Source: an uncultured Actinomycetota bacterium (GTDB taxonomy: Bacteria; Actinomycetota; Actinomycetes; Mycobacteriales; Mycobacteriaceae). Taken from it: 32,000 bases of DNA. Below, piece after piece: positions 3,458-32,000 of this stretch. The DNA lies in contig CAVZTC010000009.1 of assembly GCA_963778135.1 (NCBI GenBank), forward strand, positions 1,231,826 through 1,263,825, written 5' to 3'. Numbering within the stretch: position 1 is the stretch's first letter; each line of letters opens with the position of its first letter. The notes below the pieces were generated by a model that was not told the DNA's origin, did not search any database, and worked only from the letters and a program-made list of their open reading frames with translations. Made by a program: the position numbers and the translations under genes.

Positions 3458-3459
3458 GC

Positions 3460-3467: not shown

Positions 3468-3511
3468 CCTGACCAACGCTGTATTGTCTGCACCGACATC
3501 CGACGCCAGGC

Positions 3512-6778: not shown

Positions 6779-7182
6779 ATACTGTTACGCCGTACACCCA
6801 CACCTGGTTACTTGAGGCTTCCTGCTCGGGGCTTTGGTAACGGACACGCGGCACCGCGCCCGCACGACTGATTGCTCCTGACAGGTAATCGATCGCGCAG
6901 GTCGCTTCGGCGTGAACGACGCGACCGTCCGGATCATCGACGGGCTCACTGGCTGTCACAGCGGGGGTTGGCCGGTCGGGATCGTCGGGATTATCACGGA
7001 TCGCGAGATGGGAAATGAGCGGACCGGATCCGGCATCGATTGTGTTTGCTGACGACACGCATTATTGGCATCGGTGTTGTTAGCATTTTCGGGCTGCCGC
7101 GTTTGCGTTCGGCATCTGAATATGAATTCATTATGATGACTTCGCGAACGTGCTAGTTCATCCCTGACCTCACCAAGCGGCG

Positions 7183-8052: not shown

Positions 8053-8169
8053 CGAAGCAGCCCCTATTTAATCGATTGTCAAAAATTGCGGGCCCGTCTC
8101 TGTTCCGGTATGGCGTGGACTTGTCTACGATGAGGCGTCCTATTTGCCCACATAGGGAGGAGTGAGTAC

Positions 8170-9831: not shown

Positions 9832-10306
9832 CTATGGTTTCTTCAACTCGGGCACCAATAATATTGGTGTCTTCAATTCAGGCTCCGGAAATGCGGGCGC
9901 GTTCAATTCAGGCATCCAGTCCACGGGAATCGGAAACGCCGGCATCACTGACGCCGGCTTGTGGAACACGGGCATGGGCAACGCGGGCTGGGGAAACTCG
10001 GGCAACTTCAACACTGGCCTCTGGAACGCGGGTGATAACAATAGCGGCTGGGGGAATGCCGGCAACGGAAATACCGGCCTATTCAACGCGGGTCTGAACA
10101 ACAGTGGACCCTATAACGCGGGCGACGGAAACCAGGGCGCCTACAACGGCGGCAACAATAACGTCGGCGTCGATAATTCGGGTAATACGAATAACGGGGC
10201 ATTCAACTCGGGCAACACAGACCAGGGCGCCTTTAACTCGGGCAGCTCCGATACGGGCTGGTGGAACTCTGGCTCGGGCATTCACGGTGTCGGCAATCAA
10301 CCTTAA
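9820..10306 (+). pseudogene. 3' continuation of the same PPE-MPTR gene, displaced into the +1 frame
   Basis: The frame of ORF 9647..10306 continues perfect MPTR repeats from about 9817: GQNGNYGFFNSGTNNIGVFNSGSGNAGAFNSG...GWWNSGSGIHGVGNQP*. Removing one G from the GGGG run at 9816-9819 joins ...GIGPGFFSLG to QNGNYGFFNSG in a single frame. Confidence 0.75.
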
Positions 10307-10345
10307 TGGCCACCGGCTCATCGAGGGCATTCGTAAGGTTGTTGA

Positions 10346-10982
10346 GCTGGTGTGTTGCCGCCAGGATTGGTAGCTGACGATTGCTCCGACGTAACAAGGC
10401 CTACCGGTATCCGATCGAGGTCATCGGGCATGCGCTGCCGCTGTATCACCATGGCACTGCCACGTTAGTGAGCGTCGGCGAACTGCAAGGATGGGCGGGG
10501 TGAGGACCGCAACGGCGTCGTACAAGGGCCGCCGCCTCCCGTTGGAGGTCATCAAGTTCGGGCAGGCCTACGCCAACGGGCTACGTCGACGTCGCCCCGG
10601 CCCGGGTGACAAGTGGCACCCGGATGAGGTCTTCGTGAAGATCAACGGGGTCACCCATTACCTGTGGTGCGCAGTCGACCAGGCCGGCAACTCCCATCAA
10701 CCCGCCCGCCTCCATGAACGGGCGATGAAACGCTTTAAATCGGCCCGCGATGCCGAACGGCTCCCGTCATCCTTCAGCGGTATCTCCCCACATTTTCGAC
10801 CGCGACGGAACCGGTCTGGCGCGACCGAATGGCTAGCCGAAATGGCTCACCGCTTCGCGGCCTGGCACGAGGTCACCGTACCCCACGCGGCCGCCTGAAA
10901 TATCGACGACCATAAGCTGATCCGTAGATATGGCTCCAAAACCAACTGTGGCACAGCATATTCCGATTGATGCGACAGTGCC
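10346..10982 (+). mobile_element. decayed IS6-family insertion sequence (transposase pseudogene ~10396-10898 plus right terminal inverted repeat)
   Basis: Transposase fragments read YRYPIEVIGHALPLYH (frame 1, from ~10402), then KFGQAYANGLRRRRPGPGDKWHPDEVFVKINGVTHYLWCAVDQAGN. This last fragment is joined directly to SHQPARLHERAMKRFKSARDAERLPSSFSGISPHFRPRR. There is therefore a frameshift, and the internal deletion removes the central catalytic region. The right end, GATGCGACAGTGCC (10969-10982), matches 11 of 14 bases of the IS26-type terminal repeat TTTGCAACAGTGCC. The left boundary is only guessed, from GGTGTGTTGCC at 10348. Confidence 0.7.
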
Positions 10983-10997
10983 CCCAGGAAGGGATGG

Positions 10998-12767: not shown

Positions 12768-12873
12768 TCCTCGAATAAGCGAGTCGGTGTCAGCGGAACC
12801 TTCCCGGCGTGTCCAGAGACTTTCTGGTGTGAGAACTCAGCCGGCGGCTGGTCTCTGGTGATGAGCGCAGTTG

Positions 12874-13243
12874 GCCGCCGTCATTTCGATCGACGTGATG
12901 TCTCCGCAGTATTGGCACGAGCGGTGGTGATTGAATTTATTCGCGTGATCAAGCCGAACGCGGCGGTCATGAGGTACGGTATCAAGGCGGTTGAGAATGC
13001 CGTCGAAGATCTTCTAGCGGCCGATTTGGTGGTATGCCGCCTCCATTTCGATCGGAGGGTGTGTCAGCAGTATTGGTACGAGCGGCGGTGGTTGAATTTA
13101 TGCGGGTGATGGAGTCAAACGCGGCGGTCAGTGTGTGGCGTCATCGCGCTGCCGCCTGACATGTCAACGACCTAAAGCCGAGCCATAGATAGAGCTACCA
13201 CGGCAACTGTGCCACACTATATTCCGATTAACGTGGCAGAGCC
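12874..13243 (+). mobile_element. second IS6-family 3'-end remnant, partially duplicated in tandem
   Basis: 13151-13243 aligns without gaps to 10890-10982, which is the last transposase codons, the stop, the 84-nt tail and the terminal repeat of the first IS6 copy. I counted 70 of 93 identical positions, including the block TATTCCGATT and the terminal CAG(T/A)GCC. Upstream, two ~100-bp direct repeats (12874-12975 and 13036-13137, period 162) resemble the transposase C-terminal coding part. Copy B translates PPFRSEGVSAVLVRAAVVEFMRV...AAA*, against PHFRPRRNRSGATEWLAEMAHRF...AAA* in the first copy. Confidence 0.55.
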
Positions 13244-13415
13244 CACCAACCTGACCAACCAAGCCCAACATCCAACTCGCGACCGCGCCGCGACTAACAA
13301 CCGGCCGAACCGCGGCAACACGCTGCCGCCCCCCAAAAAAACGCCAGGTCAAACGCCCGAACTGAATGTATACCCCGGAGCCATACTCTTTCGACCGAGT
13401 GATTAGGGTAGCCGG

Positions 13416-15782
13416 ATGGAACGTGATGGCCAGGCGCTTCCGCTTTCGCGGGCACAGCTAGGTATTTGGTTTGCGCAGCAAGCGGGTTTCTTCGATACGG
13501 AGTGGCCGATCGGCCTATTTCTGATAGTCGAGGCGGCTGTAGTACCTGATGTGGTTGAGCAGGCAATCCGGAGAGTAGTGGAAGAGGCTGAGCCAATCAG
13601 GGCCACTTTCTTCGAGGCGGATGGCGAGATTTACCAAAAGGTAATTGAAGACCCGGATATCGAGCTTCCGCTGTATGACCTGAGGTCCTCGAATGATCCC
13701 GTGCAGGAGGCGTACAGGATAGCGGAGTCGATCCAACGTAAGCCGATGCCGCTCGATGGCCCGTTGTTTAAATTTGCGTTATTGCGGACGAGGACCGATG
13801 AGTCCTACGTATTCCTGTGCTGCCACCATATCGTCGTCGACGGGTTCGGCATTGGAATTCTTGGGCATCGGATCGCGGCTGTCTACTCTGCACTGGTTTC
13901 TGGCGTGCCCATCCCGCCCGGGTTCTTCGGCTCGCTGCATGACCTGATTGAGTGCGAATCAGAATACGAAGCATCCGCCGAATATCACGACGATCTGGCC
14001 TACTGGAAAAGAAATCTTCCACCGGATACGGCACAGCAATATCGGTTGCCGCAGGCGACCGGAGGGGGTGATTCCGGCTGGCGCTCTGCGCCGGTACAAC
14101 TGGACCCTTCGGTTGTCGCTCGAATACAGGAGTTATCGGAGTTTTTGGGTGTTCGCCGAGCCTCGGTGACGACGGCGGCGTGCGCGCTTGTGGTGCATGA
14201 ATTGTCCGCTGGGGGCCCCGAGGTGGTGCTCGACTTCCCGGTCAGTCGGCGCGTGCGTCCGGAGTCGAAGATGGTTCCCGGCATGTTCGCCGGGGTGGTG
14301 CCTTTGGTGTTGACGGCGTCGCCGGGATCGACGGTTGCCGGTTTTTGTGAGCATGTTGACGGACGAATACGAGAAACGCTGCAACATCAGCGTTTTCCGG
14401 TGCACATTCTTGAGGGCAGGGACCGCCTCCTTGACCCGCATGGCGCGGCACAACGGGTGAATATCAATTTCATCCCGGCCGCGATGAGTGGGACCTTCGG
14501 GGGTGCGCCGGGATCGGGATTGGTGACCACTTTTGGCCCGGTGGGCCACTTTGCGCTGTTCTTCCTGCGAGCCGGTGATGAGCTGTCGCTGAGCACCGCG
14601 GGTTGCGGGCAGCCGTTTTCGAATTTCTCCGTCGCCGATTTAGCGCGTCGATTGGAGCAGGTGGTGGTGGCGATGGCCGCCGACCCCTCCCGGCGGCTGG
14701 CGTCGATGGATCTGTTGGACGGTGGTGAGCACGCCCGGCTGGACGGCTGGGGGAATCGGGCGGTGTTGACCCGGCCGGCGAGCGCACCGGTGTCGATTCC
14801 GCCGTTGTGGGCCGCCCAAGTTGCACGCACGCCGGAGGCGGTGGCGCTGACGTTCGCGGGGCGCTGCACGACGTACCGGGGGCTTGAGGAGGCGTCGAAC
14901 CGGTTGGCGCACCTGCTGGTGGGCCGGGGTGTGGGTCCGGGGCAGTGTGTGGCGCTGCTGTTTACCCGTTCCATCGATGCGATTACCGCGATTACGGCGG
15001 TGCTGAAGACGGGGGCGGCCTATCTCCCCATCGATCCGGGCCTGCCGGCGGCCCGGATCGCGTTTATGCTCGCTGATGCGGCACCGGTGGCCGCGATCAC
15101 CACCACCGCGCTGGCCGCCCACCTCGAGGGCTATGACCTGCTGGTCATCGATGTCGAGGACCCCGCCATCGACACCCAACCCGTTACCGCGCTACCGGCG
15201 CCGCGCCCCGATGACCTGGCCTACCTGATCTACACCTCGGGCACCACCGGAACCCCCAAGGGCGTCGCGGTCAGTCATGCCGGCATTCCCGACTTAGTGG
15301 CCACCCGCGCGGAGCGTCTTGGCATCGGGCCGACGAGTCGCGTCCTGCAGTTTGCTCCGTTCATCTTCGATGCGTCGGTGGTGAACCTGTGGGTTGCGTT
15401 GTTGACCGGCGCGACCGCAGTACTGCCCGCCGAGGACCAAGCGCTACCGGGCCGGGAATTAGTGGACTTGATCGTCGAGCAGAACGTCTCTCACGGGGAA
15501 TTGACGCCCACCGCGATCGCCGCCCTCCCCGAACACCGAGCTGCACGGCATGACTGTGATTGCCGGCGGCGAGGTCTGCTCGACAGACCTTGTCGCGCGC
15601 TACGCCGATGCCGGCTCCTTCATCAACTCCTACGGCCCGACCGAGGCGAGCGTGGACCTGACCATGACGGGCCCGCTGGCTGCCGATTGCGGAACGCCAC
15701 CGATTGGTTACCCGGTGTCGTGGGCGGGGTTGTTTGTCCTGGATGGCTGGTTGCGCAGGGCGCCACTGGGTGCGGTCGGTGA
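13416..15782 (+). CDS. NRPS segment 1 (starter C domain plus first part of A1); meaningful translation ends at ~15528
   Basis: ORF-track protein begins [29 protein letters not shown] (C3 motif) lies at 13824-13844 and [17 protein letters not shown] (A3 motif) at ~15220. After ...[10 protein letters not shown] the ORF degenerates into an Arg/Cys-rich tail, while the +1 frame continues with [14 protein letters not shown]. Confidence 0.85.
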
Positions 15783-16480
15783 ACTGTATGCCGCGGGTCG
15801 CGGTGTGGCCTATGGGTATTGGGGCCGTTCACGCGAGACCGCGTCGCGGTTTGTGGCCTGCCCATTCGGGGGAGTCGGCGAACGCATGTATCGCACCGGG
15901 GATCTGGTGTGGTGGGGTGCTGATGGGCAGTTGCGGTATGCGGGGCGCGCTGATGAGCAGGTCAAGATCCGCGGGTATCGCATTGAGCTGGGCGAAGTCC
16001 GGGCCGCGCTGGCCCAGCTTGCGGGGGTGGAGCAGGCGGTGGTGATCGCCCGTGAGGACCGTCCTGGGGATCGGCGGCTGGTGGGTTATGTGACGGGGAC
16101 GGCGGACCCGGCCGCGGTGCGTAGCGTGCTGGCCGAGCGGCTGCCGGTCTATATGGTTCCCGCGGCCGTGGTGGTGGTGGAGGCGTTGCCGTCGACGCCT
16201 AACGGCAAGCTCGACGTCCGCGCGTTGCCGGCCCCCGATTTTGGCGATGTTGACCGGTATCACGCCCCAGCGACGCCGGTTGAGGAGATCTTGGCCGGTA
16301 TTTTCGCGCGGGTCTTGGGGTTAGCGCGGGTGGGGGTCGAGGACTCGTTTTTCGAGTTGGGTGGGGATTCCCTGTCGGCGATGCGCCTGATTGCGGTGGT
16401 CAACAAGTCGTTGGGTGCTGGTCTGTCGGTGCGGACGGTGTTTGAGGAGCCGACGATCGCGGGGTTGGCGCGGCATCTCG
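13416..16480 (+). other. NRPS module 1: C(starter-type)-A1-T1
   Basis: C1 spans ~13416-14700 (HHIVVDG at 13824-13844). A1 spans ~14740-16240 ([49 protein letters not shown]). T1 spans ~16260-16480 ([18 protein letters not shown] at ~16359-16376). Frameshift 1 lies inside A1. Confidence 0.8.
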
Positions 16481-19400
16481 GCGCAGACACGGTTGCGCGT
16501 CAGCCGCTGGTGGCTGGTGAGAGGCCGGCGGTGGTGCCGTTGTCGTTTGCCCAGCAGCGGTTGTGGTTTTTGAATCGGTTCGAGGGCGGGGTCGCCACCT
16601 ACAACATCCCGGTCGCGTTTCGGGTGAGCGGGGCGCTGGATGTCGAGGCGTTCGGTGTGGCGCTCGATGATGTGATCGCCCGTCATGAGTCGCTGCGCAC
16701 CGTGTTTCCCGATCGGGAGGGTGTGCCGGTCCAGCAGGTGATACCGGCGTCGGCGGGGTTGTGGCGGCGCGGTGGTGCCGCGGTGCTGGCGGTGCCGGAG
16801 GCCGAGGTGGTCGCGGAGTTGGTGGGGTTGGCCGGGTATCGGTTTGATTTGGCCGGCGAGGTCCCGATCCGCGCGCAGATCTATGCGCTGGGCCCCGAGC
16901 AGTATGTGGTGGGGATGGTGGTGCACCACATCGCGTTTGATGGGTGGTCGCTGGCCCCGATGGTGCGTGATGTGGCCCAGGCGTACGCGGCGCGCTGCCA
17001 GGGCGGCGCCCCGGGTTGGGCGCCGTTGCCGGTGCAGTATGTCGATTACACGTTGTGGCAACGGCAGTGCTTGGGCGAGGAGTCTGATCCGCACAGTGCG
17101 ATCGCCGCGCAGTTGGCCTACTGGCGCCAGGAGTTGGCGGGGCTGCCGCAGGTGGTGTCGCTGCCCACCGATCGGCCCCGTCCGGCGGTAGCCAGTTACC
17201 GCGGTGATGCGGTGGCGCTGGTCATTGAGGCGCCGGTGTGGGCGGGGGTCAAGGCGCTGGCCGCCGAGCACAACGCGACGCCCTCGATGGTGTTGCAGGC
17301 GGTCATGGCGGTGGTGTTGGCCAAGGCCGGGGTCGGTTCGGATGTGGTGATGGGTTCGGTGATCGCCGGGCGTTTGGATGAGGCGCTCGATGATCTGGTC
17401 GGGTTTTTCGTCAACACCTGGGTGTTGCGGGTCGGTGTCGAGGCCGGCGACCGGTTCGGTGAGGTGTTGGCGCGGGTGCGCGACAAGGCGCTGAATGCCT
17501 ACACCCATCAGGAGATTCCGTTTGAGTTGCTGGTGGAGCGGCTCAACCCGGTGCGTTCAGCGGCGCATCATCCGCTGTTTCAGGTGTGCATGGTGCTCCA
17601 GAACAATGCGCTCCCCGAGCAGATTGCGCTGGACGGGGTCGCCGTTGAGCCGCTGGCGACGTCCACCCACACCGCCAGGTTCGACCTGGACATCCAGCTG
17701 TGGGAGGTGCCCACCGGGGATCCGGGGGTGTCGATGGCCGCCGGTGCGGTGACCTATGCCACGGATTTGTTTGACCGGGCCAGCATCGAGCGGTTGGTCG
17801 GCTGGTTCGCGCGGGTCCTGCAAGCGGTCATCGCCAATGCCTTGGTGCCCGTCGCAGAGGTGTCGTTGCTGGATGCCGGTGAGCGTGATCGGGTGCTGTC
17901 CGACTGGTCTGGCGCCCAGGTGGAGGCGCCGGTAGGGGTGGCGCCGGCGTTGCTGGCTGCCGCGGTGGCCGCTGACCCGGACGCGGTGGCGGTCATCGAC
18001 GGCGACCGGCAGCTGTCGTATCGCGAGCTTGATGAGTGCTCGACGCGGTGGGCTCGGGTGCTGATCGAGACCGGGGTGGGTCCCGAGCGCGCAGTGGGTG
18101 TGGCGACGGGTCGGTCTGTGGAGTTGGTGGTCGCCTGGTGGGCGGTGGCCAAGGCCGGCGGGACCTATGTGCCGGTGGATCCGACCCATCCGGTGGCGCG
18201 GGTCGCAGCGGTATTGGATGCGGTGAGCGCGGAGTGTGTGTTGACCTGTGGTGTCGACACCATGGCCGCGGCCGGGGCCCGCCCGGTGCTGCGCATGGAT
18301 GTTTCAGACGCCCTGGACGTGTCCGCGCGTTCCGCGGAACCGATCACCGATGCCGAGCGGCTGGCGCCGCTGACGGTGGACAACTCCGCGTATGTGATCT
18401 TCACGTCCGGGTCTACCGGTGTCCCCAAGGGGGTGGCGGTCAGCCACGCCGGTCTGCTCGGGCTGGCCGCCGCGCTACGGGCGGTGTTCGAGGTGGATGC
18501 CGGTGCGCGGATCCTGATGGTGGCCGCACCGACCTTCGATGCCTCGATTAGCGAGATGTTGGTGGCGGTGGAGTCGGGGGCGGCGCTGGTGGTGGCGCCG
18601 CCGGAGGTGTATGCCGGTGCGGCGTTGACCGCGTTGCTGGCCGAGCAGCGGGTCAACGCCGCGAAATTGACCCCGTCGGTGCTGGCGACGCTGGATCGGG
18701 CCCGACTGGGCGGATTGGGCACCGTGGTCGTCGCCGGTGAGGCGTGCCCGGCGGAGTTGGTGCACACCTGGGTGCCGGGCCGGCGGATGGTCAACGCCTA
18801 CGGCCCCACCGAGGCCACCGTCTGGGCGACCTGTGCACGACTCGTGGCGGGCCAGCCCGTTACCATCGGCGCTCCGCTTGCGGGGGCGTGCGCGCTGGTG
18901 CTCGATTCCCGACTGAATCCGGCCCCGATCGCGGTGGTGGGCGAGTTGTATCTGGCCGGGCCCGGTCTGGCCCGCGGTTATGTGGGCCGGGCGGGGTTGA
19001 CCGCGGAACGCTTTGTAGCCAATCCTTTCGGGGGTGCCGTTGGCCAGAACGGGACGCCGGGAACACGGATGTATCGCACCGGGGACCTGGTGCGCTGGAC
19101 CCCGGCCGGTGACCTGGAGTACCTGGGTCGCGCTGATGCCCAGATCAAACTGCGTGGGCAGCGTATCGAGTTGGGTGAGATCGAAAACACCCTGTTGGCG
19201 TGCCCTCAGGTCAGCCAGGCCGCCGCGGCCGTGCATCACAGCGATACCGGTTCTGCGCTGGTCGCCTACATCACTGTGGAGGACACCGCCAGCCCCGATC
19301 ACGACGCCGAAAGCCTCGAAGAGTGGCAACACCTGCATGACGAGCTGTATGGCGCTGAGCTAGCCCAGGTCCCTGGGGTCCCGGGGGTCCCTGGGGTCCC

Positions 19401-22400
19401 TGGGGTCAATGGGATCGAGGCGCCGGGGTTCGGGATGGACTTTCGGGGCTGGAACAGCAGCTTTACCGGTGATCCGATTCCGCTGGAGGAGATGCTGGAG
19501 TGGCGTTCGGCCACGGTGGATCGGATCTTGGCCTTGGGGCCGCGGCGGGTGTTGGAGATCGGGGTGGGCAGCGGACTGCTGTTGTCGCAGATCGCCCCGC
19601 ACTGCGAACGCTATGTCGGCACCGATGTGTCGGGCGTGGTCATCGACAACATGGCCGGCGCGCTGCAGCGCCAGGGCCAGTGGCGGGATCGCGTCGAGTT
19701 ACACGCCCAGCCCGCTCACCTGGCTGAGGCGTTGCCGCGCGGCTATTTCGACACCATCATCGTCAACTCGGTCGTCCAGTACTTCCCGCACGCGGGGTAT
19801 CTGACCGAGGTCCTCGACACCGCGCTGGATTTGTTGGCCCCGGGTGGGGCGGTGTTTATCGGCGATGTGCGCAACCACGGCCTGGCCGCCGCGTTCTACA
19901 CCGCGGTCGTGTTGGCCGGTGCCGCCAGGTCAGAAACCTCGGATGCTATCGAGGCTGCCGAGATCAGTCAGCGGGTGCAGCGCGCGATGCTCGGCGAATC
20001 CGAATTGTTGTTGGCGCCGGAGTTTTTCACCGGTTGGGCCGGGGGTCAGGCGGTGGTGGCCGGGGTCGATATCGAAGTCAAGCGGGGATCGGCTGATAAC
20101 GAACTGACCCGGTATCGCTACGACGTCGTCATTCACACGGCCCCCACCGGGGTGTGTTCGCTGGCCACCGCGCCGGTGTGGGCGTGGGCCGACTGTGCGG
20201 GTCTGGACGGGCTGGGCGCCCGGTTGCAGTCCGGGCCTCGTACCGCGGTGCGCGTTACCGCCATCCCGGCCAGGGGGCTGTTCACCGACGTGCGTCGGCA
20301 CGCCGCCGTCGACGCCGCGGTGGCCGCGGGGGTTGCGCTGGGCGAGGTACTCGCCGACACCGACACTGGGGTCCCCCTGGCGGTGACCACTGAGCAGCTG
20401 CATCGCCTGGGTGAGGCCAGCGGGTATCGCGTCGCGGTCACCTGGGGTGCCCAGCCCGGCACGTTGGACGCGGTTTTCCTGGCTGCCACCGAGGCGGATG
20501 GTGAGCCCATGGCGGCGTTGACCGATATCTACCTGCCCGCGGCCGGGGATCGGCCGTACGCCAATGATCCGCAGATCACCGCCAAAGTCGGCGCGGTGCG
20601 GGCGCGGTTGAGTGCGTGGTTGCCCGAGTACATGGTGCCGGCGCACCTTGTGGTGCTTGACCAGTTTCCGTTGACGTCGTCGGGCAAGCTCGACCGTAAC
20701 GCGTTGCCGGCGCCGGTGTTTGACGCGAAACCGTTCCGGGCGCCGGCGACGCGGACCGAGGAGATCGTGGCCGGGGTGTTCGCGCAGGTGCTGGGCCTGG
20801 GTCGGGTCGGGCGCGACGACGACTTCTTTGCCCTGGGTGGGGATTCGTTGAGCGCCACTCGGGTGGCCGCGCGGTTGCAGGTCGCGGCGGGCAGTCAGGT
20901 GTCGGTGCGGTCGTTGTTCGAGGCGTCCACCGTCGCGTCGCTGGCCGAGTATCTGGGCCGCGATGGCGGTGGGCCGGTGCGCCCGCCGTTGGCGGTGATG
21001 ACGCGTCCGGCGGTGGTGCCGTTGTCGTTTGCCCAGCAGCGGTTGTGGTTCCTGGACCGGTTGGAGGGCGGGGTCGCCACCTACAACATTCCGGTCGCGT
21101 TTCGGGTGAGCGGGGCGCTGGATGTCGAGGCGTTCGGTGCGGCGCTCGATGATGTGATCGCCCGCCATGAGTCGCTGCGCACCGTGTTTCCCGATCGGGA
21201 GGGTGTGCCGGTCCAGCAGGTGATACCGGCGTCGGCGGGGTTGTGGCGGCGCGGGGGTGCCGCGGTGGCGGCGGTGCCGCACGACGAGGTGGCCGCGGAG
21301 TTGGTGGGGTTGGCCGGGTATCGGTTTGATTTGGCCGGCGAGGTCCCGATCCGCGCGCAGATCTATGCGCTGGGCCCCGAGCAGTATGTGGTGGGCATGG
21401 TGGTGCACCACATCGCGTGTGATGGGTGGTCGCTGGTCCCGATGGTGCGTGATGTGGCCCAGGCGTACGCGGCGCGCTGCCAGGGCGGCGCCCCGGGGTG
21501 GGCGGCGTTGCCGGTGCAGTATGTCGATTACACGTTGTGGCAACGGCGGTGGTTGGGCGAGGAGTCTGATCGGCACAGTGTGATCGCCGCGCAGTTGGCC
21601 TATTGGCGCCAGGAGTTGGCGGGGCTGCCGCAGGTGGCGTCGCTGCCCAGCGATCGGCCGCGTCCGGCGGTGCCCAGTTACCGCGGTGATGCGGTGGCGC
21701 TGGTTATTGAGGCGCCGGTGTGGGCGGGGGTCACGGCGCTGGCGGCGGCGCACAACGCGACGGCGTCGATGGTGTTGCAGGCGGTCATGGCGGTGGTGTT
21801 GGCCCGGGCCGGGGCCGGCGACGACATCGTGTTGGGTTCGGTGATTGCCGGGCGGTTGGATGAGGCGCTCGATGATCTGGTCGGGTTTTTCGTCAATACG
21901 TGGGTGTTGCGGGTCGGTGTGGAGGCCGGCGACCGGTTCGGTGAGGTGTTGGCGCGGGTGCGGCGCAAGGCGCTGGATGCCTACACCCATCAGGAGATTC
22001 CGTTTGAGTTGCTGGTGGAGCGGCTCAACCCGGTGCGTTCAGCGGCGCATCATCCGCTGTTTCAGGTGTGCATGGTGTTCCAGAACAATGCGCGCCCCGA
22101 GCAGGTCGCGCTGGACGGGGTCGCGGTGGAGCCGTTGGCGACGTCGACCCGGACCGCCAAGTTCGACCTGGATTTCCAGCTCAGCGAAATGCCCACCGGC
22201 GATCCGGGGGTGTCGATGGCCGCCGGGGTGGTGACCTATGCCACGGATTTGTTTGACCGGGCCAGCATCGAGCGGTTGGTCGGCTGGTTCGGGCGGGTGT
22301 TGGAGGCGGTGATCGCTGATGCCTCGGTGGTGGTCGGCGACGTGGCGTTGCTGGATGCCGGTGAGCGCGCCCGCCTGGATGGGTGGGGCAACCGCGCGGT

Positions 22401-25400
22401 GTTGACCCGGCCGGCCCCGACACCGGTGTCGATTCCGGTGCTGTGGGCCGCCCAAGTCGCGCGCATCCCTGAGGCGGTGGCGGTGACGTTCGAGGACCGC
22501 TGCATGACGTACCGGGAGCTTGATCAGGCCGCTAACCGGCTGGCGCATCTGTTGGTCGCCCAGGGTGTGGGTCCGGGACAGTGTGTGGTGCTGCTGTTTA
22601 GCCGTTCCATCGAGGCGATTGCGGCGATGTTGGCGGTGCTGAAGACGGGGGCGGCGTATTTGGCGATCGATCCGGGTCTGCCGGCGGCCCGGATCGGGGT
22701 GATCGTTGCCGATGCTGCGCCGATCGCCGCGGTGAGCACCGCCGGGCTGGCCGAGCGCCTCGACGGGTGTGTGCTGGTCATCGATGTCGGTGATATCTGG
22801 GCCCCCGCTGGTGACAGCCACCCGGTCGCCGCGTTGGCGCCACCGGCCGGTGAGGACATCGCGTACATCATTTACACCTCGGGGACTACTGGTGCGCCCA
22901 AGGGTGTGGCTGTGGCTCACCGCAACGTGACCCAGCTGTTGGAGGCGCTGGATGGCGAGGTGCCGCGTGCGGGGGTGTGGACGCAGTGTCATTCGTTGGC
23001 GTTCGACTTTTCGGTGTGGGAGATCTGGGGTGCGCTGCTCGGTGGCGGGCGGTTGGTGGTGGTCTCGGAGTTGGTGGCCCGCTCACCGGAGGACTTCCAT
23101 GCCTTATTGGTCGCTGAACGGGTCAGCGTTTTAAGTCGGACCCCGTCGGCGTTTTATACGTTGCCGGCCCCTGATGCGCTGGGGTCTGGGCGGGCAGATC
23201 AGCTGGCGGTTGAGGTTGTGGTGTTCGGCGGGGAAGCGCTGCAACCGCAGCGTTTGGGGTCGTGGCTGGATCATCCGGGATCGCCGCGGCTGATCAACAT
23301 GTATGGCATCACCGAGACGACGGTGCATGCGTCGGTGCGCGAGATCGGGATCGGTGATGTCACCAGCATCGCCAGTCCTATTGGGGTGCCGTTGGCGCAT
23401 CTTGGGTTTTTTGTGCTGGACGGGCGGCTCAATCCGGTGCCGGTGGGTGTGGTGGGGGAGTTGTATGTCGCCGGGTCGGGGTTGGCGTATGGGTATGTGC
23501 GCCGGGCCGGGTTGAGCGGGTCGCGGTTTGTGGCGTGTCCGTTCGGGAGTCCGGGGGCGTCGGGAACGCGGATGTATCGCACTGGGGACGTGGTGCGCTG
23601 GACTGCCCGGGGTGAGCTGGAGTACCTGGGTCGTGCTGATGAGCAGGTCAAACTGCGCGGGTATCGCATCGAGTTGGGGGAGATCGAAAACACCTTGTTG
23701 GCGTGTCCGCAGGTCAGCGGGGCCGCCGCCGCGGTGTATCACAGCGACACCGGTTCGCAGCTGGTCGCCTACATCACCGTCGGCGACACCGCCGGCTCCG
23801 AGCGTGACACCGAAAGCGTCGAAGAGTGGCACGAGCTGTATGACGAGTTGTATGGCGCTGAGCTAGCCCAGGTCCCTGGGGTTGAGGCGCCGGGGTTCGG
23901 GATGGACTTTCGGGGTTGGAACAGCAGCTTTACCGGTGATCCGATTCCGCTGGAGGAGATGATCGAGTGGCGTTCGGCCACGGTGGATCGGATCATGGCC
24001 CTACAACCGCGGCGGGTGTTGGAGATCGGGGTGGGCACCGGACTGCTGTTGTCGCAGATCGCCCCGCACTGCGATCACTATGTCGGCACCGATATGTCGG
24101 GCGTGGTCATCGAGAACCTGGCCCACGCGGTAGAGAGTCAGGGCCAGTGGCGCGATCGTGTCGAGTTGCGCGCCCAGCCCGCTCACCTGGCTGAGGGGTT
24201 GCCGCGCGGCTATTTCGACACCATCATCGTCAACTCGGTCGTCCAGTACTTCCCGCACGCGGGGTATCTGACCGAGGTCCTCGACACCGCGCTGGATTTG
24301 TTGGCCCCGGGTGGGGCGGTGTTTATCGGCGATGTGCGCAACCACGGCCTGGCCGCCGCGTTCTACACCGCGGTCGTGTTGGCCGGTGCCGCTAGGTCAG
24401 AAACCTCGGATGCTATCGAGGCTGCCGAGATCAGTCAGCGGGTGCAGCGCGCGATGCTCGGCGAATCCGAGTTGTTGTTGGCGCCGGAGTTTTTCACCGG
24501 TTGGGCCGGGGGTCAGGCGGTGGTGGCCGGGGTCGATATCGAAGTCAAGCGGGGATCGGCTGACAACGAACTGACCCGGTATCGCTACGACGTCGTCATT
24601 CACACGGCCCCTACCGGGGTGTGTTCGGTGGCCACCGCGCCGGTGTGGGCGTGGGCCGACTGCGCGGGTCTGGACGGGCTGGGCGCCCGGTTGCAGTCCG
24701 GGCCTCGTACCGCGGTGCGGGTGACCGCCATCCCGGCCAGGGGGCTGTTCACCGACGTGCGTCGGCACGCCGCCGTCGACGCCGCGGTGGCTGCGGGGGT
24801 TGCGCTGGGCGAGGTACTCGCCGACACCGACACTGGGGTCCCCCTGGCGGTGACCGCTGAGCAGCTGCATCGCCTGGGTGAGGCCAGCGGGTATCGCGTC
24901 GCGGTCACCTGGGGTGCCCAGCCCGGCACGTTGGACGCGGTTTTCCTGGCTGCCACTGAGGCGGATGGTGAGCCCATGGCGGCGTTGACCGATATCTACC
25001 TGCCCCCGGCGGGGGCCGGAGACCGGGCGCACGCCAATGATCCGCAGATCACCGCCAAAGTCGGCGCGGTGCGGGCGCGGTTGAGTGCGTGGTTGCCCGA
25101 GTACATGGTGCCGGCGCACCTTGTGGTGCTCGAGGCGTTCCCGGTGACGTCGTCGGGCAAGCTCGACCGTAAAGCCCTGCCGGCGCCGGTGTTGGACGCG
25201 AAACCGTTCCGGGCCCCGGCGACGCGGACTGAGGAGATCGTGGCCGCGGTGTTCGCGCAGGTGCTGGGCCTGGGTCGGGTCGGGCGCGACGACGATTTCT
25301 TTGCCCTGGGTGGGGATTCGTTGAGCGCCACTCGGGTGGCCGCGCGGCTGCAGGTGGGGTCGGGCAGACGGGTGTCGGTGCGGTCGTTGTTTGAGGCGCC

Positions 25401-26835
25401 CACGGTGGCTGGTCTGGCTGAGTATCTGGGCCGGGAGGGTCAGGGGCCGGTGCGTCCGCCGTTGGCGGTGATGACGCGCCCGGCGGTGGTGCCGTTGTCG
25501 TTTGCTCAGCAGCGGTTGTGGTTTTTGAACCGGTTGGAGGGCGGGGTCGCCACCTACAACATCCCGGTCGCGTTTCGGGTCAGCGGGGCGCTGGATGTCG
25601 AGGCGTTCGGCGCGGCGCTCGATGATGTGATCGCCCGCCACGAGTCGCTGCGCACCGTGTTTCCCGATGAGGACGGTGTGCCGGTTCAGCAGGTGATACC
25701 GGCGGGGGTGGGGTTGTGGCGGCGCGGAGGTGCCGCGGTGGAGGCGGTGCCGGAGGCCGAGGTGGTCGCGGAGTTGGTGGGGTTGGCCGGGTATCGGTTT
25801 AATTTGGCCGGCGAGGTCCCAATTCGGGCGCAGATCTATGCGGTGGGCCCCGAGCAGTACGTGGTGGGGATCGTGGTGCACCACATCGCTATTGATGGGT
25901 GGTCGCTGGCCCCGATGGTGCGTGATGTGGCCCAGGCGTACGCGGCGCGCTGCCACGGTGTGGCCCCGGGGTGGGCGCCGTTGGCGGTGCAGTATGTCGA
26001 TTACACGTTGTGGCAACGGCAGTGGTTGGGCGAGGAGTCTGATCCGCGCAGTGTGATCGCCGCGCAGTTGGCGTATTGGCGCCAGGAGTTGGCCGGTGTG
26101 CCCCAGGTGGTGTCGCTGCCCAGCGATCGGCCGCGCCCGGCGGTCGTCAGTTACCGCGGTGATGCGGTGGCGCTGCGTATCGAGGCGCCGGTGTGGGCGG
26201 GGGTCAAGGCGCTGGCCGCCGCGCACAACGCGACGGTCTCGATGGTGTTGCAGGCGGTCGTGGCGGTGGTGCTGGCCCGCGGCGGGGCCGGTGACGACAT
26301 CGTGTTGGGTTCGGTGATCGCCGGGCGGTTGGATGAGGCGCTCGATGATCTGGTCGGGTTTTTCGTCAACACGTGGGTGTTGCGGGTCGGCGTGCACCCC
26401 GCAGACCAGTTCGGTGAGGTGTTGGCGCGGGTGCGACGCAAGGCGCTGGATGCCTACACCCATCAGGAGATTCCGTTTGAGTTGCTGGTGGAGCGGCTCA
26501 ACCCGGTGCGCTCAGCGGCGCATCATCCGCTGTTTCAGGTGTGCATGATTTTCCAGAACAATGCGCGGCCCGAGGCGGCGCTGCAGGGCGTCGCGGTGGG
26601 AGCCGCTGGAGATGTCGACCCGGACCGCCAAGTTCGACCTGGATATCGAGCTGGGCGAGGTGGATACCGGCGATCCGGGGGTGTCGATGGCCGCCGGGTT
26701 CGTGTCGTATGCCACGGATTTGTTCGACCGGGCCAGCATCGAGCGGTTGGTCGGCTGGTTCGGGCGGGTCCTGCAGGCGGTCATCGCCGACCCGTCGGTG
26801 GTGGTCGGCGACGTGGCGTTGCTGGATGCCGCTGA
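15550..26835 (+). CDS. NRPS segment 2 (rest of A1-T1, modules 2 and 3, most of C4); meaningful translation runs ~15529-26598
   Basis: 3761-aa ORF containing [36 protein letters not shown], three [11 protein letters not shown] carrier motifs, three HHIAxDGWS condensation motifs and two embedded methyltransferases. After ...GVAV at 26598 the ORF turns into an Arg/Gly-rich tail, while the +1 frame continues with [15 protein letters not shown]. Confidence 0.9.
19330..20566 (+). other. embedded SAM-dependent N-methyltransferase domain MT2 (inserted between A-domain core motifs A8 and A9/A10)
   Basis: [17 protein letters not shown] is the SAM-binding motif I (VLExGxGxG). [15 protein letters not shown] matches the NRPS N-MT core motif NELSxYRYxAV. 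The domain is flanked upstream by [20 protein letters not shown] (A8) and downstream by LPEYMVP...SSGKLDR (A9/A10). Confidence 0.85.
19369..19413 (+). repeat. in-frame 9-bp tandem repeat, 4 good copies plus 1 degenerate, encoding (VPG)n
   Basis: The repeat reads GTCCCTGGG GTCCCGGGG GTCCCTGGG GTCCCTGGG GTCAATGGG and encodes [15 protein letters not shown]. The paralogous site in module 3 (about 23868-23880) has a single VPG; [11 protein letters not shown] there corresponds to [23 protein letters not shown] here. Confidence 0.9.
19417..22360. repeat. ~2.9-kb direct repeat, copy a (MT2-A2 tail-T2-C3)
   Basis: Matches 23884-26835 at offset 4467. The offset grows to 4473 after a 6-nt indel near 20540/25010 and to 4474 after the extra G at 26598-26600. 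The antisense ORFs 19930..21990 and 24397..26463 in the track are near-identical. Confidence 0.85.
20962..23832. repeat. 2.87-kb direct repeat, copy 1 (T2-C3 linker, C3, A3 core)
   Basis: Matches 28706-31576 at a constant offset of 7744 nt. By hand I counted roughly 30 mismatches, nearly all in the first ~900 bp. In the supplied track the antisense ORF translations 22039..22992 and 29783..30736 are letter-for-letter identical. Confidence 0.9.
21003..25430 (+). other. NRPS module 3: C3-A3(interrupted by MT3)-T3
   Basis: C3 spans ~21003-22340 (HHIACDG at 21406-21426). The A3 core spans ~22375-23832 ([41 protein letters not shown]). MT3 spans ~23833-25038. The A3 tail runs to ~25190. T3 spans ~25210-25430. 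Confidence 0.85.
23833..25038 (+). other. embedded SAM-dependent N-methyltransferase domain MT3
   Basis: [17 protein letters not shown] and [15 protein letters not shown] are present. Over most of its length it differs from MT2 by only two residues (the stretch [21 protein letters not shown]...ALTDIYLP). Confidence 0.85.
23884..26835. repeat. ~2.9-kb direct repeat, copy b (MT3-A3 tail-T3-C4)
   Basis: See copy a. Confidence 0.85.
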
Positions 26836-28700
26836 GCGTGATCTGGTGCTGTCCGACTGGTCCGGCGCCGGTGTGGGGGCGCCGATAGGGGTGGTGTCGG
26901 CGTTGCTGGCGGCCGCGGTGGCCGCTGACCCGGACGCGGTGGCAGTCATCGACGGCGAGCGGCAGCTGTCGTACCTGCAGCTTGATGAGTGCTCGACGCG
27001 GTGGGCTCGGGTGCTGATCGAGACCGGGGTGGGTCCCGAGCGCGCGGTAGGCGTGGCGATGGACCGGTCTGTGGAGTTGGTGGTGGCCTTCTGGGCGGTG
27101 GCCAAGGCCGGCGGGGTGTATGTGCCGGTGAATCCGGCGCATCCGGTGGCGCGGGTCGCGGCGGTGCTCGACGCGGCCGGGGCGGTGTGTGTGGTGACCT
27201 GTGGTGTCGACACCGTGGCCGGGGCCGGGGCCCGCCCGGTGCTGCGGATCGATGCTTCGGACGCTGCCGACGTGTCCGGGCGGAGCGCGCAGCCGATCAC
27301 TGACGCTGAGCGGCTGGCGGCGTTGACGGTGACTAACACGGCGTATGTGATGTTCACGTCCGGGTCCACCGGTGTCCCCAAGGGGGTGGCGGTCAGCCAC
27401 GCCGGTCTGCTGGGGCTGGCCGCCGCACTGCGGGCGGTGTTCGGGGTGGGTGCCGACGCGCGGGTATTGATGGCGGCCGCGCTGACCTTTGATGCCTCGG
27501 TCGGCGAGTTGTTGGTGGCGGTGGAGTCGGGGGCGGCGCTGGTGGTCGCGCCGCCGGAGGTGTATGCCGGTGCGGCGTTGACGGCGTTGCTGGACGAACA
27601 GCGGGTGAGCACCGCGCTGTTGACCCCGACGGTGCTGGCGACGCTGGATCGGGCCCGGCTGACCGGGCCGCAGGCGTTACACACGCTGGTCGCTATCGGG
27701 GAGGCCTGCCCGCCGGAGGTGGTGGACGCGTGGGCGCCGGGCCGGCAGATGTTCAACGCCTACGGCCCGACCGAGGCCAGCGTGTGGGCCACCTGTGCAC
27801 GACTGGTGGCGGGTCAGCCGGTCAGTATCGGCGCCCCGCTTGCGGGGGCGTGTGTGCTGGTGCTCGATGCCCGGCTGAACCCGGCCCCGGTGGGGGTGGT
27901 GGGCGAGTTGTATCTGGCCGGGCCTGGTCTGGCGCACGGTTATCTGGGCCGGGCGGGGTTGACCGCGGAACGCTTTGTAGCCAATCCTTTCGAGGACGCC
28001 GTTGGCCAGAACGGGACGCCGGAAACACGGATGTATCGCACCGGGGACCTGGTGCGCTGGACCCCCCGAGGTGACCTGGATTATCTGGGTCGCGCTGATG
28101 CCCAGATCAAACTGCGTGGGCAGCGTATCGAGTTGGGTGAGATCGAAAACACCCTGTTGGCGTGCCCGCAGGTCAGCCAGGCCGCCGCGGCCGTGCATCA
28201 CAGCGACACCGGTTCGCAGCTGGTCGCCTACATCACCGTGCAGCACCCCGCCAGCCCCGAGCGCGACACCGAAACCCTCGACGAATGGCCGCACCGGTAT
28301 GAGGAGCCGGATGGCGCTGAGGACACCACACTGAGCGCGGTGCGGGCGCGGTTACGTCAGTGGTTGCCCGAGTACATGGTGCCGGCACACATCGTGGTGC
28401 TCGAGGCATTCCCGGTCACGTCGTCGGGCAAGCTCGACCGTAAAGCGTTGCCGGCGCCGGTGTTTGACGCGAAACCGTTCCGGGCGCCGGCGACGCGGAC
28501 CGAGGAGATCGTGGCCGGGGTGTTCGCACAGGTGCTGGGCCTGGGTCGGGTCGGGCGTGACGACGACTTCTTTGCGCTGGGTGGGGATTCGTTGAGCGCC
28601 ACGCGGGTGGCCGCGCGGCTGCAGGTCCCGTTGGGCAGGCAAGTGCTGGTGCGGGCGTTGTTTGAGGCGCCCACCGTGGCTGATCTGGCCGACCATCTGC
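25470..28700 (+). other. NRPS module 4: C4-A4(no MT, scar)-T4
   Basis: C4 spans ~25470-26835 (HHIAIDG at 25879-25899; frameshift 2 at 26598-26600). A4 spans ~26880-28440 and is a paralogue of A2 ([31 protein letters not shown]). T4 spans ~28480-28700. Confidence 0.8.
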
Positions 28701-31700
28701 AGCGCCATGGCGGTGGGCCGGTGCGACCGCCGTTGGCGGTGATGACGCGTCCGGCGGTGGTGCCGTTGTCGTTTGCCCAGCAGCGGTTGTGGTTCCTGGA
28801 CCGGTTCGCCGGCGAGGTGGGCACCTACAACATTCCGGTCGCGTTTCGGGTGAGCGGGGCGCTGGATGTCGAGGCGTTCGGTGCGGCGCTCGATGATGTG
28901 ATCGCCCGCCATGAGTCGCTGCGCACCGTGTTTCCCGATCGGGAGGGTGTGCCGGTCCAGCAGGTGATACCGGCGTCGGCGGGGTTGTGGCGGCGCGGGG
29001 GTGCTGCGGTGGCGGCGGTGCCGCACGACGAGGTGGCCGCGGAGTTGGTGGGGTTGGCCGGGTATCGGTTTGATTTGGCCGGCGAGGTCCCGATCCGCGC
29101 GCAGATCTATGCGCTCGCACCCGAGCAGTATGTGGTGGGCATGGTGGTGCACCACATCGCGTGTGACGGGGGGTCGCTGGTCCCGATGGTGCGTGATGTG
29201 GCCCAGGCGTACGCGGCGCGCTGCCAGGGCGGCGCCCCAAGCTGGGCGGCGTTGCCGGTGCAGTATGTCGATTACACGTTGTGGCAACGGCGGTGGTTGG
29301 GCGAGGAGTCTGACCCGCACAGTGTGATCGCCGCACAGTTGGCCTATTGGCGCCAGGAATTGGCGGGGCTGCCGCAGGTGGCGTCGCTGCCCACCGATCG
29401 GCCGCGTCCGGCGGTGCCCAGTTACCGCGGTGATGCGGTGGCGCTGGTTATTGAGGCGCCGGTGTGGGCGGGGGTCACGGCGCTGGCGGCGGCGCACAAC
29501 GCGACGGCGTCGATGGTGTTGCAGGCGGTCATGGCGGTGGTGTTGGCCCGCGGCGGGGCCGGCGACGACATCGTGTTGGGTTCGGTGATCGCCGGGCGGT
29601 TGGATGAGGCGCTCGATGATCTGGTCGGGTTTTTCGTCAATACGTGGGTGTTGCGGGTCGGTGTGGAGGCCGGCGACCGGTTCGGTGAGGTGTTGGCGCG
29701 GGTGCGGCGCAAGGCGCTGGATGCCTACACCCATCAGGAGATTCCGTTTGAGTTGCTGGTGGAGCGGCTCAACCCGGTGCGTTCAGCGGCGCATCATCCG
29801 CTGTTTCAGGTGTGCATGGTGTTCCAGAACAATGCGCGCCCCGAGCAGGTCGCGCTGGACGGGGTCGCGGTGGAGCCGCTGGCGACGTCGACCCGGACCG
29901 CCAAGTTCGACCTGGATTTCCAGCTCAGCGAAATGCCCACCGGCGATCCGGGGGTGTCGATGGCCGCCGGGGTGGTGACCTATGCCACGGATTTGTTTGA
30001 CCGGGCCAGCATCGAGCGGTTGGTCGGCTGGTTCGGGCGGGTGTTGGAGGCGGTGATCGCTGATGCCTCGGTGGTGGTCGGCGACGTGGCGTTGCTGGAT
30101 GCCGGTGAGCGCGCCCGCCTGGATGGGTGGGGCAACCGCGCGGTGTTGACCCGGCCGGCCCCGACACCGGTGTCGATTCCGGTGCTGTGGGCCGCCCAAG
30201 TCGCGCGCATCCCTGAGGCGGTGGCGGTGACGTTCGAGGACCGCTGCATGACGTACCGGGAGCTTGATCAGGCCGCTAACCGGCTGGCGCATCTGTTGGT
30301 CGCCCAGGGTGTGGGTCCGGGACAGTGTGTGGTGCTGCTGTTTAGCCGTTCCATCGAGGCGATTGCGGCGATGTTGGCGGTGCTGAAGACGGGGGCGGCG
30401 TATTTGGCGATCGATCCGGGTCTGCCGGCGGCCCGGATCGGGGTGATCGTTGCCGATGCTGCGCCGATCGCCGCGGTGAGCACCGCCGGGCTGGCCGAGC
30501 GCCTCGACGGGTGTGTGCTGGTCATCGATGTCGGTGATATCTGGGCCCCCGCTGGTGACAGCCACCCGGTCGCCGCGTTGGCGCCACCGGCCGGTGAGGA
30601 CATCGCGTACATCATTTACACCTCGGGGACTACTGGTGCGCCCAAGGGTGTGGCTGTGGCTCACCGCAACGTGACCCAGCTGTTGGAGGCGCTGGATGGC
30701 GAGGTGCCGCGTGCGGGGGTGTGGACGCAGTGTCATTCGTTGGCGTTCGACTTTTCGGTGTGGGAGATCTGGGGTGCGCTGCTCGGTGGCGGGCGGTTGG
30801 TGGTGGTCTCGGAGTTGGTGGCCCGCTCACCGGAGGACTTCCATGCCTTACTGGTCGCTGAACGGGTCAGCGTTTTAAGTCGGACCCCGTCGGCGTTTTA
30901 TACGTTGCCGGCCCCTGATGCGCTGGGGTCTGGGCGGGCAGATCAGCTGGCGGTTGAGGTTGTGGTGTTCGGCGGGGAAGCGCTGCAACCGCAGCGTTTG
31001 GGGTCGTGGCTGGATCATCCGGGATCGCCGCGGCTGATCAACATGTATGGCATCACCGAGACGACGGTGCATGCGTCGGTGCGCGAGATCGGGATCGGTG
31101 ATGTCACCAGCATCGCCAGTCCTATTGGGGTGCCGTTGGCGCATCTTGGGTTTTTTGTGCTGGACGGGCGGCTCAATCCGGTGCCGGTGGGTGTGGTGGG
31201 GGAGTTGTATGTCGCCGGGTCGGGGTTGGCGTATGGGTATGCGCGCCGGGCCGGGTTGAGCGGGTCGCGGTTTGTGGCGTGTCCGTTCGGGAGTCCGGGG
31301 GCGTCGGGAACGCGGATGTATCGCACTGGGGACGTGGTGCGCTGGACTGCCCGGGGTGAGCTGGAGTACCTGGGTCGTGCTGATGAGCAGGTCAAACTGC
31401 GCGGGTATCGCATCGAGTTGGGGGAGATCGAAAACACCCTGCTGGCGTGTGCGCAGGTCAGCGGGGCCGCCGCTGCGGTGTATCACAGCGACACCGGTTC
31501 GCAGCTGGTCGCCTACATCACCGTCGGCGACACCGCCGGCTCCGAGCGTGACACCGAAAGCGTCGAAGAGTGGCACCACGACCCGCAGATCACCAGCAAA
31601 CTCAGCGCCGTGCGTGCGCAGTTAAGTGCATGGTTGCCCGGGTACATGGTGCCGGCGCACATTGTGGTGCTCGAGGCGTTTCCGGTGACGTCGTCGGGCA

Positions 31701-32000
31701 AGCTCGACCGTAAAGCCTTGCCGGCGCCGGTGTTTGACGCGAAACCGTTCCGGGCGCCGCGGACCCGGACCGAGGAGATCGTGGCCGGGGTGTTCGCCGA
31801 GGTGCTGGGCCTGGGTCGGGTCGGGTGTGATGACGATTTCTTCGCTCTGGGTGGGGATTCGTTGAGCGCCACTCGGGTGGCCGCGCGGCTGCAGGTGGCT
31901 TTGGACAGACGGGTGTTGGTGCGGTCGTTGTTCGAGGCGTCTACCGTCGCCGATCTGGCCGACCATCTGCAGCGCCATGGTGGCGGGCCGGCCCGCCCCC
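26600..32000 (+). CDS. NRPS segment 3 (end of C4, A4-T4, C5-A5-T5), open at the right edge
   Basis: Not in the ORF track because it has no stop codon in the window. My translation in the frame of position 26600 reads [64 protein letters not shown]... It continues through [28 protein letters not shown], two [11 protein letters not shown] motifs, [26 protein letters not shown] and [11 protein letters not shown]. It ends ...[14 protein letters not shown] at 31999. Confidence 0.85.
28706..31576. repeat. 2.87-kb direct repeat, copy 2 (T4-C5 linker, C5, A5 core)
   Basis: See copy 1. Identity ends abruptly at GAAGAGTGGCAC (23821-23832 and 31565-31576), the point where MT3 begins in module 3. Confidence 0.9.
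28747..31970 (+). other. NRPS module 5: C5-A5(no MT, scar)-T5
   Basis: C5 spans ~28747-30090 (HHIACDGGS from 29150). A5 spans ~30120-31700 and is near-identical to the A3 core. T5 spans ~31750-31970 ([11 protein letters not shown]). The window ends exactly where the earlier modules begin their next C domain, so at least one more C domain is expected beyond 32000. Confidence 0.8.

Follow-up and report, generated by a model that had tools for sequence, protein, structure and literature searches.

The forward strand of the window, the 32,000-nucleotide stretch of contig CAVZTC010000009.1 from an uncultured member of the Mycobacteriaceae analyzed here, carries at positions 13416-32000 what is read with fair confidence as the first 18.6 kb of one giant, functional gene for a mycobacterial lipopeptide synthetase resembling Mps1 and the other glycopeptidolipid (GPL) synthetases. 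From 13.4 kb to the window end the coding sequence passes through three successive forward frames (13407-15780, 15505-26833, and 26549-32000). Joining them across two frameshifts, an in silico repair that an earlier sequence-only reading of this DNA had proposed, gives a product of 6194 amino acids with zero stop codons. The gene is clipped by the window end and its product is at least this long. The motif map of the repaired product shows five complete modules of a nonribosomal peptide synthetase (NRPS) arranged as Cs-A-T / C-A(MT)-T / C-A(MT)-T / C-A-T / C-A-T, with Cs a starter condensation (C) domain, A the adenylation domain, T the carrier domain, and MT an embedded methyltransferase. Pfam matches to the Condensation, AMP-binding, AMP-binding_C, PP-binding, and methyltransferase families are distributed over all three pieces (E values 1e-254 to 1e-18), giving the same giant enzyme of at least five modules, in the same order, that had been read by hand. 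The repeated C-A-T units have the core features of a modular (type I) NRPS with all five HHxxxDG motifs, the A3, A4, A5, A7, and A8 motifs of the A domains, the A10 lysine, the GGDSL (GGxS) carrier serine, and MT motif I intact.

The window terminates in a linker ("...GGGPARP") of a kind identical to that preceding C3, C4, and C5, which leads to the expectation of a sixth C domain beyond position 32000; it is very probably present, in line with the earlier view that the gene continues. A query with a mycobacterial epimerization (E) domain using tblastn has no match in the window, and the same query finds at least 60 sites in the 80 related loci that were used for comparison and in which the C domains were sorted by the presence or absence of an E domain immediately upstream. 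A thioesterase (TE) query with tblastn is similarly without a match within the window, and no reductase (R) domain is in view in its domain map, so that the earlier statements on E, TE, and R domains are upheld. Among the protein matches listed none is longer than about 1900 amino acids and none is a full-length homologue of the NRPS, the best non-self relatives among them being about 60% identical. The database matches of the window are uniformly mycobacterial and, together with its PPE gene, assign it to Mycobacterium.

The two frameshifts that had been proposed in the NRPS are both located within domains. Frameshift 1 (15531-15545, close to 15537, forward strand) is a 1-nucleotide indel in A1 between the A4 and A5 motifs, where blastx against the paralogous A domains switches frame, and frameshift 2 (26595-26601, close to 26599, forward strand) is an extra G in GTGGGAG in C4, as defined by alignment with the paralogous region 17400-18100, which is without that G. 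The best surviving alternative, although an unlikely one, is a true pseudogene in which both frameshifts are real, only a 788-amino acid fragment with one C domain and part of an A domain is made, and no peptide is formed. Both frameshifts truncate the protein inside domains, and a frameshifted PPE gene and an insertion sequence (IS) remnant beside the cluster fit a decaying locus. Set against this, there are no in-frame stops or damaged catalytic motifs across the 6194 amino acids, the indels involve single bases, and two of the three 1-nucleotide indels in the 32 kb fall in G runs. The contig carries no annotation, and truncation of this kind recurs in homologues from comparable contigs: the module 1 homologues P0003, P0007, P0008, and P0014 are fragments of 700-1000 amino acids with out-of-frame tails rich in Arg and Gly, and these stem from ENA/NCBI contigs of 0.1-1 Mb, which suggests systematic indel errors in the giant NRPS genes of the assemblies concerned. 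Spurious frameshifts are also on record for mps1 of Mycobacterium smegmatis, which in a finished genome had been divided by two frameshifts caused by sequencing error (PMC3537567). Combining the single-base nature of the indels, the G runs, the stop-free repaired frame, the unannotated contig, the similarly broken homologues, and the mps1 precedent, the frameshifts are quite probably not inactivating mutations but one-base errors in the assembly of a long-read, unannotated contig.

In modules 2 and 3 an insert of about 400 amino acids lies between the A8 and A10 motifs of the A domain. The stretch from A8 to A10 spans 531 amino acids in A2 and 521 in A3 compared with 99 in A1. From Pfam matches, specificity codes, identities, and the motif map, A2 (17989-20736, forward strand) is interrupted by MT2 (about 19294-20586), and A3 (22459-25206, forward strand) is interrupted by MT3 (about 23764-25056). 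Both inserts match the Pfam families Methyltransf_12, 23, 25, and 11, contain the S-adenosylmethionine (SAM) motif I VLEIGVGxG, and have as their best PDB match the interrupted A-MT domain of TioS (PDB code 5WMM, 238 bits), and the earlier identification of the embedded domains as methyltransferases is thereby supported. The insert length, SAM motif I, and likeness to N-methyltransferases (N-MTs) are those of an interrupted A domain of the N-methylating kind. A 9-nucleotide tandem repeat of 4.4 copies encoding PGV is observed at 19368-19407 in the linker before MT2 and is present as a single copy at MT3.

The alternative chemistry, in which one or both of these domains methylate a side chain instead of the backbone nitrogen, for instance giving O-methyl-Thr in module 3, is improbable. 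A3 activates a hydroxy amino acid, and an MT embedded at A8-A9 in KtzH O-methylates Ser. However, the closest structural relative is the N-MT of TioS, and MT3 is 93.7% identical to MT2, which occupies a different A scaffold. Insertion between A8 and A9 is described for N-MT domains of NRPSs, and in a survey of C-A-MT-T modules the inserts of about 400 amino acids at this site were N-MTs (PMC2613160). The likeness to TioS, the insertion site, and the near identity of MT2 and MT3 together argue that backbone N-methylation is the likely reaction of both domains.

Large segments of DNA are repeated inside the NRPS gene. Positions 20591-23832 and 28335-31576 are 97.7% identical over 3.2 kb, and positions 18910-22367 and 23425-26838 are 90.5% identical over 3.5 kb, suggesting that modules were duplicated or underwent gene conversion recently. 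The place after A8 where the MT is inserted lies close to the end of the 97.7% repeat and in the region where the 90.5% repeat begins; intragenic repeats of this size are also a hazard for assembly. The A5 domain corresponds to A3 with a clean deletion of the 401-amino acid MT in which the N-terminal linker of the MT is retained and joins directly to HDPQITSK. The spacing from A8 to A10 of 125 amino acids in A4 and 120 in A5 is longer than the 99 of A1, and these regions have the appearance of scars left by MT loss. Taken with the repeats, the scars suggest that one C-A(MT)-T ancestor gave rise to the four elongation modules by intragenic duplication, with subsequent loss of the MT from modules 4 and 5. 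Read in this way, the gene is a clear record of NRPS evolution in which modules were duplicated in tandem and the MT was then cleanly excised from two of them, and pairs of the A3/A5 type mark natural, tolerated boundaries for the insertion or removal of an MT, which is useful for NRPS engineering.

The ten-residue specificity codes that had been extracted by hand were recovered exactly, with DAVEIGSVDK for A1, DASKVAAVWK for A2, DFWSVGMVHK for both A3 and A5, and DAGLVIAVWK for A4. The A4 domain (26945-28477, forward strand) is defined by its code and spacing and has no MT, retaining only the scar between A8 and A10. The A5 domain (30203-31747, forward strand) aligns to the N-terminal part of A3 with 99.6% identity. 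The carrier domains T2 (20749-20952), T3 (25222-25425), and T4 (28493-28696), all on the forward strand, are placed by the motif map, as is T5, which together with the beginning of a linker like those before C3-C5 occupies the last nucleotides of the window (31763-32000, forward strand).

Support for Thr as the substrate of A3 and A5 comes from the Mycobacteroides loci L052 and L044, in which DFWSVGMVHK is also the code of the last two A domains. Both loci have five visible modules with the E-domain pattern -,-,E,-,E. The solved structure of the lipopeptide GL8P is acyl-T-A-F-I-Y-L-T-T, in which residues 1, 3, 6, and 8 have the D configuration (PMC11978893), and the E pattern of L052 and L044 fits GL8P modules 4-8, so that their last two A domains would be those for Thr-7 and Thr-8. 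The identity of A3 to these two domains is 65-66% compared with 56-59% for the other three. With the identical code and the highest identity both to modules mapped to Thr, the earlier Thr call for A3 and A5 is reasonably supported.

A2 and A4 are 84.5% identical and belong to a mycobacterial A subfamily that has members with an embedded MT in 11 related loci. One of these, L072 of Mycobacterium scrofulaceum, shows an E domain followed by DCL-A(DAGIIVGIWK)-MT-T, then LCL-A(DFWTVGVMWK), and then two more modules. The DFWTVGVMWK module would be specific for Ile by mapping to GL8P, and the arrangement appears to parallel that of the lipopentapeptide (L5P) of Mycobacterium avium subsp. paratuberculosis, D-Phe / NMe-Val / Ile / Phe / Ala. 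The position of an A2/A4-type domain in the L5P-like module 2 of L072 suggests an aliphatic, Val-like substrate for A4, and this assignment is uncertain. The Tyr/Phe-like assignment made earlier for A2 is weakened by its identity to A4 and by the MT carried by the subfamily in L5P-like module 2, and for A2 too the substrate is uncertain.

The four elongation C domains, C2 (16513-17856, HHIAFDG), C3 (20995-22338, HHIACDG), C4 (25468-26812, HHIAIDG, which holds frameshift 2), and C5 (28739-30082, HHIACDG, 97.7% identical to C3), all on the forward strand, were delimited by the motif map together with PDB and locus comparisons and paralogue alignment, and have mutual identities of 87-98%. The C2 domain is 25-30% identical to the 27 post-E (DCL) C domains of the related loci compared with a median of 48% and a maximum of 71% for the 191 C domains that have no E domain upstream. 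The PDB matches of C2-C5 are led by LCL domains (5U89, the FscG PCP-C didomain, Txo1/2, and TycC5-6) with 190-400 bits, whereas SrfA-C and TycB1 score 76-89 bits. Dual E/C domains are marked by a second N-terminal HHxxxxGD motif, and this identity was considered for C2-C5 and rejected as no second N-terminal HH motif is found in them. The comparisons place C2-C5 in the LCL class, as had been proposed, and with E domains absent from view an all-L peptide would be formed. The LCL-type start, which had been put within about 25 amino acids of each T, is observed 55 amino acids past the carrier serine, equivalent to about 10-25 amino acids past the end of the T domain, a small correction.

Module 1 differs from the remainder of the assembly. 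The C1 domain (13416-14735, forward strand, HHIVVDG) begins at residue 8 of the protein and is only 23-26% identical to C2-C5. Its top PDB matches are RzmA-Cs (PDB code 7c1k, 148 bits) followed by ObiF1, CDA-C1 (112 bits), and EntF (94 bits), and the N-terminal place in module 1, the closeness to characterized starter C domains, and the homologues described below define it as a starter domain of the lipo-initiation type, as which it had been taken earlier in broad terms. Domains of the C1 type occur in 13 of the 80 related loci with 45-63% identity. In two of these, L038 (Mycobacterium paraffinicum) and L013, 20-23 bp separate the end of a KS-AT-DH-ER-KR-ACP polyketide synthase (PKS) gene from the starter module that follows it, and the C1 homologues located directly behind these reducing PKSs, which terminate in an acyl carrier protein (ACP) domain, are 54-58% identical to C1. 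MmpL genes lie upstream in the related loci L013 and L016, and this layout of PKS-ACP and then Cs, with MmpL genes upstream in L013 and L016, is the GPL-type arrangement. The earlier reading had left the cap as N-acyl or N-aryl; a starter C domain is borne out, and by analogy with the PKS-ACP directly before the homologous starter modules an acyl cap is favored over an aryl cap.

The A1 domain (14823-16296, forward strand, from motif map and specificity code) is followed by T1 (16264-16476, forward strand, LGGDSL, from Pfam and motif map). The code DAVEIGSVDK has acidic residues at positions 278 and 331 and resembles the Orn code DVGEIGSIDK, so that the substrate is possibly basic and Orn/Lys-like. 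A transfer of substrate from the closest A domains (P0272, P0274, and P0320, 67% identity) was rejected because their code is DMGKVGEVDK. Prediction from codes has failed before in mycobacteria, where residue 6 of GL8P was predicted as Thr and found to be Leu (PMC11978893).

The same module gives rise to a very improbable alternative, an aryl-capped NRPS of the siderophore type, in which C1 takes salicyl or dihydroxybenzoyl from an aryl carrier in the style of EntF, DhbF, and MxcG and A1 loads a basic residue. The best NCBIfam match of module 1 is MxcG (330 bits), then PRK05691 and EntF (227 bits), all far below their cut-offs; EntF is among the C1 matches in the PDB, the acidic residues at 278 and 331 of A1 would suit a basic residue, and an ABC exporter is encoded upstream of the NRPS. 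However, the lipo-initiation domains RzmA-Cs and CDA-C1 outscore EntF against C1, its homologues stand directly behind reducing PKSs ending in ACP, no aryl-acid genes are found in the 13 kb upstream, and two N-methylations with an aliphatic and Thr composition are not siderophore-like. In the weakest alternative, each of the three open frames would be an NRPS gene in its own right, overlapping its neighbor. This view takes its support from the gene caller, which lists the first frame as a 788-amino acid protein of its own (P0001), and is refuted by the domain anatomy, as the junctions split A1 between A4 and A5 and C4 after the C5 region, and neither downstream frame opens with the beginning of a domain.

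For the intact lipopeptide synthetase a mechanism can be proposed in which the starter C domain would transfer a fatty or polyketide acyl group from a carrier, encoded outside the window, onto residue 1, and an MbtH-like protein would assist the A domains. In modules 2 and 3 the α-amino group of the thioester-bound residue would be methylated in a SAM-dependent manner before condensation, the LCL domains would couple L-residues without epimerization, and the chain would be handed to at least one further module past the window, with an ABC protein possibly exporting the product. The predicted start of the product is acyl-X1 (possibly basic, Orn/Lys-like)-NMe-X2-NMe-Thr-X4 (aliphatic, Val-like)-Thr-... 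A structurally new lipopeptide of six or more residues, all of them L and two of them N-methylated, is put forward tentatively, at slightly less than even likelihood; its residue 1 may be cationic, and it would form a new branch of the GPL-like surface lipopeptides of mycobacteria in a probably uncultured environmental lineage. Several points weigh against the assignment to a functional lipopeptide synthetase: no fatty acyl-AMP ligase (FAAL), ACP, or PKS gene is found within 13 kb upstream of the NRPS, the substrates of A1, A2, and A4 are guesses, and to these are added the O-methylating precedent of KtzH and the damaged PPE gene and IS remnant described above.

The region upstream of the NRPS contains two genes that the sequence-only reading, which held for the NRPS itself, had overlooked. 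An MbtH-like protein of 76 amino acids is encoded from a GTG start at 6548-6778 on the forward strand (Pfam MbtH, E = 2.4e-29), 6.6 kb upstream of the NRPS. The exact 76-amino acid product is on record in the protein collection under the one contig of 1,278,002 bp to which the window's proteins belong, and its 90%-identity cluster includes MbtH proteins of Mycobacterium gastri and other mycobacteria. In all GPL loci the NRPS genes are preceded by an mbtH-like gene, which is needed for GPL production (PMC3537567), and the protein in the window is a probable activator of the NRPS A domains. The second gene (10998-12767, forward strand) encodes an ABC exporter half-transporter with membrane and ATPase domains (Pfam ABC_membrane 3.7e-31 and ABC_tran 1.9e-31), which matches MsbA-like and peptide-exporter families of NCBIfam below their cut-offs and is a candidate exporter of the product.

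Between these two genes are a PPE-MPTR gene (8170-10306, forward strand) that is divided into two frames (8170-9831 and 9647-10306) by a 1-nucleotide indel in a GGGG run at about 9815-9830, and the remnant of an IS240/IS6-family transposase (10491-10898, forward strand), also lying between the MbtH-like gene and the NRPS, which is a weak match covering the first 30 DDE-domain positions only. On the reverse strand, a membrane acyltransferase of the Pfam family Acyl_transf_3 (4531-5895) may be a tailoring O-acyltransferase; a protein of this family also adjoins the homologous NRPS in L011 (5084-6508). An open reading frame (ORF) of 1114 amino acids on the reverse strand (2894-6238) was rejected as spurious, having no Pfam match and a composition rich in Arg, Gly, and Pro and being overlapped by real genes, which are those of this acyltransferase, an HxlR regulator (2879-3457, forward strand), and an FHA/cyclase-like protein (3512-4576, forward strand).

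Long NRPSs of this kind are uncharacterized yet common in mycobacterial genomes (PMC11978893), and the finding of one more would not surprise a specialist. Within the 80 related loci 22 have an embedded MT, and seven, including those of Mycobacterium triplex and Mycobacterium ahvazicum, pair a Thr-like A domain with an MT. In L072 (M. scrofulaceum, 1-17951) and L024 (Mycobacterium parascrofulaceum), modules 2-5 are L5P-like (NMe-X / Ile-type / X / X) and are followed by further E and C domains; these NRPSs may be those of the longer M. avium-complex lipopeptides mentioned in PMC11978893. The NRPS described here is useful for genome mining without overturning current understanding, and its predicted peptide sequence is accessible to synthesis and testing. 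Members of the mycobacterial lipopeptide family are surface antigens and colonization factors, and if the enzyme is active it would bring an N-methylated, all-L addition to a family that includes GPL, L5P/L3P, and GL8P.

Comparison with characterized domains is at the family level. In the A4-M4 structure of TioS (5WMM), as in the window, the MT interrupts the A domain in its C-terminal part, and TioS belongs to a different pathway, that of thiocoraline, in a different organism. The RzmA-Cs (PDB codes 7C1H/K/P) and CDA-C1 (PDB code 4JN3) structures are best matches of C1, yet well below the level of orthologues. Fortuitine, with N-methyl residues at positions 2 and 5 and Thr at 6 and 7, does not fit the module order of the window.

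Of the mycobacterial systems, the GPL synthetases Mps1/Mps2 with GplH share with the window the starter C family, the upstream mbtH-like gene, and a Thr module, and module 1 homologues with 57-59% identity are annotated by JGI as "glycopeptidolipid biosynthesis protein". To build GPL, a synthetase would need four modules with three E domains and a reductase at its end. The four-residue core of GPL, D-Phe-D-alloThr-D-Ala-L-alaninol (PMC3537567), has three D residues and an alcohol terminus, whereas the window shows five or more modules, two of them with an MT, and lacks E domains, and the earlier exclusion of a GPL synthetase stands. The L5P synthetase, Mps1 of M. avium subsp. paratuberculosis, makes acyl-D-Phe-NMe-L-Val-L-Ile-L-Phe-L-Ala (PMC8103206), an N-acylated peptide with an N-methyl residue at position 2 as predicted for the window, and in related loci such as L072 the A2/A4-type domains carry an MT in the L5P-like module 2. 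L5P carries a single N-methyl group and lacks Thr, and its D residue at position 1 implies epimerization. The window, in contrast, has two MT modules, two Thr-type modules, and no E domain, and the linker toward a sixth C domain makes a total of more than five modules probable, so that here too the earlier distinction is retained.

The GL8P synthetase of Mycobacterium abscessus (MAB_4691c/MAB_4690c), encoded at the "second locus", is also a GPL-like locus for a long lipopeptide with an MbtH-type protein, and its Thr modules have the code DFWSVGMVHK found in the window, as judged from the matching Mycobacteroides loci L052 and L044. It consists of eight modules with four E domains (modules 1, 3, 6, and 8), no N-methylation, MmpL transporters, and glycosyltransferases (PMC11978893), compared with the MT domains, the absence of E domains, and the ABC exporter of the window. 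GPL-like loci vary in size and predicted product between species (PMC11978893), and the module pattern seen here fits none of GPL, L5P, and GL8P, from which the product, as the sequence-only reading had concluded, is probably a previously undescribed member of this series.

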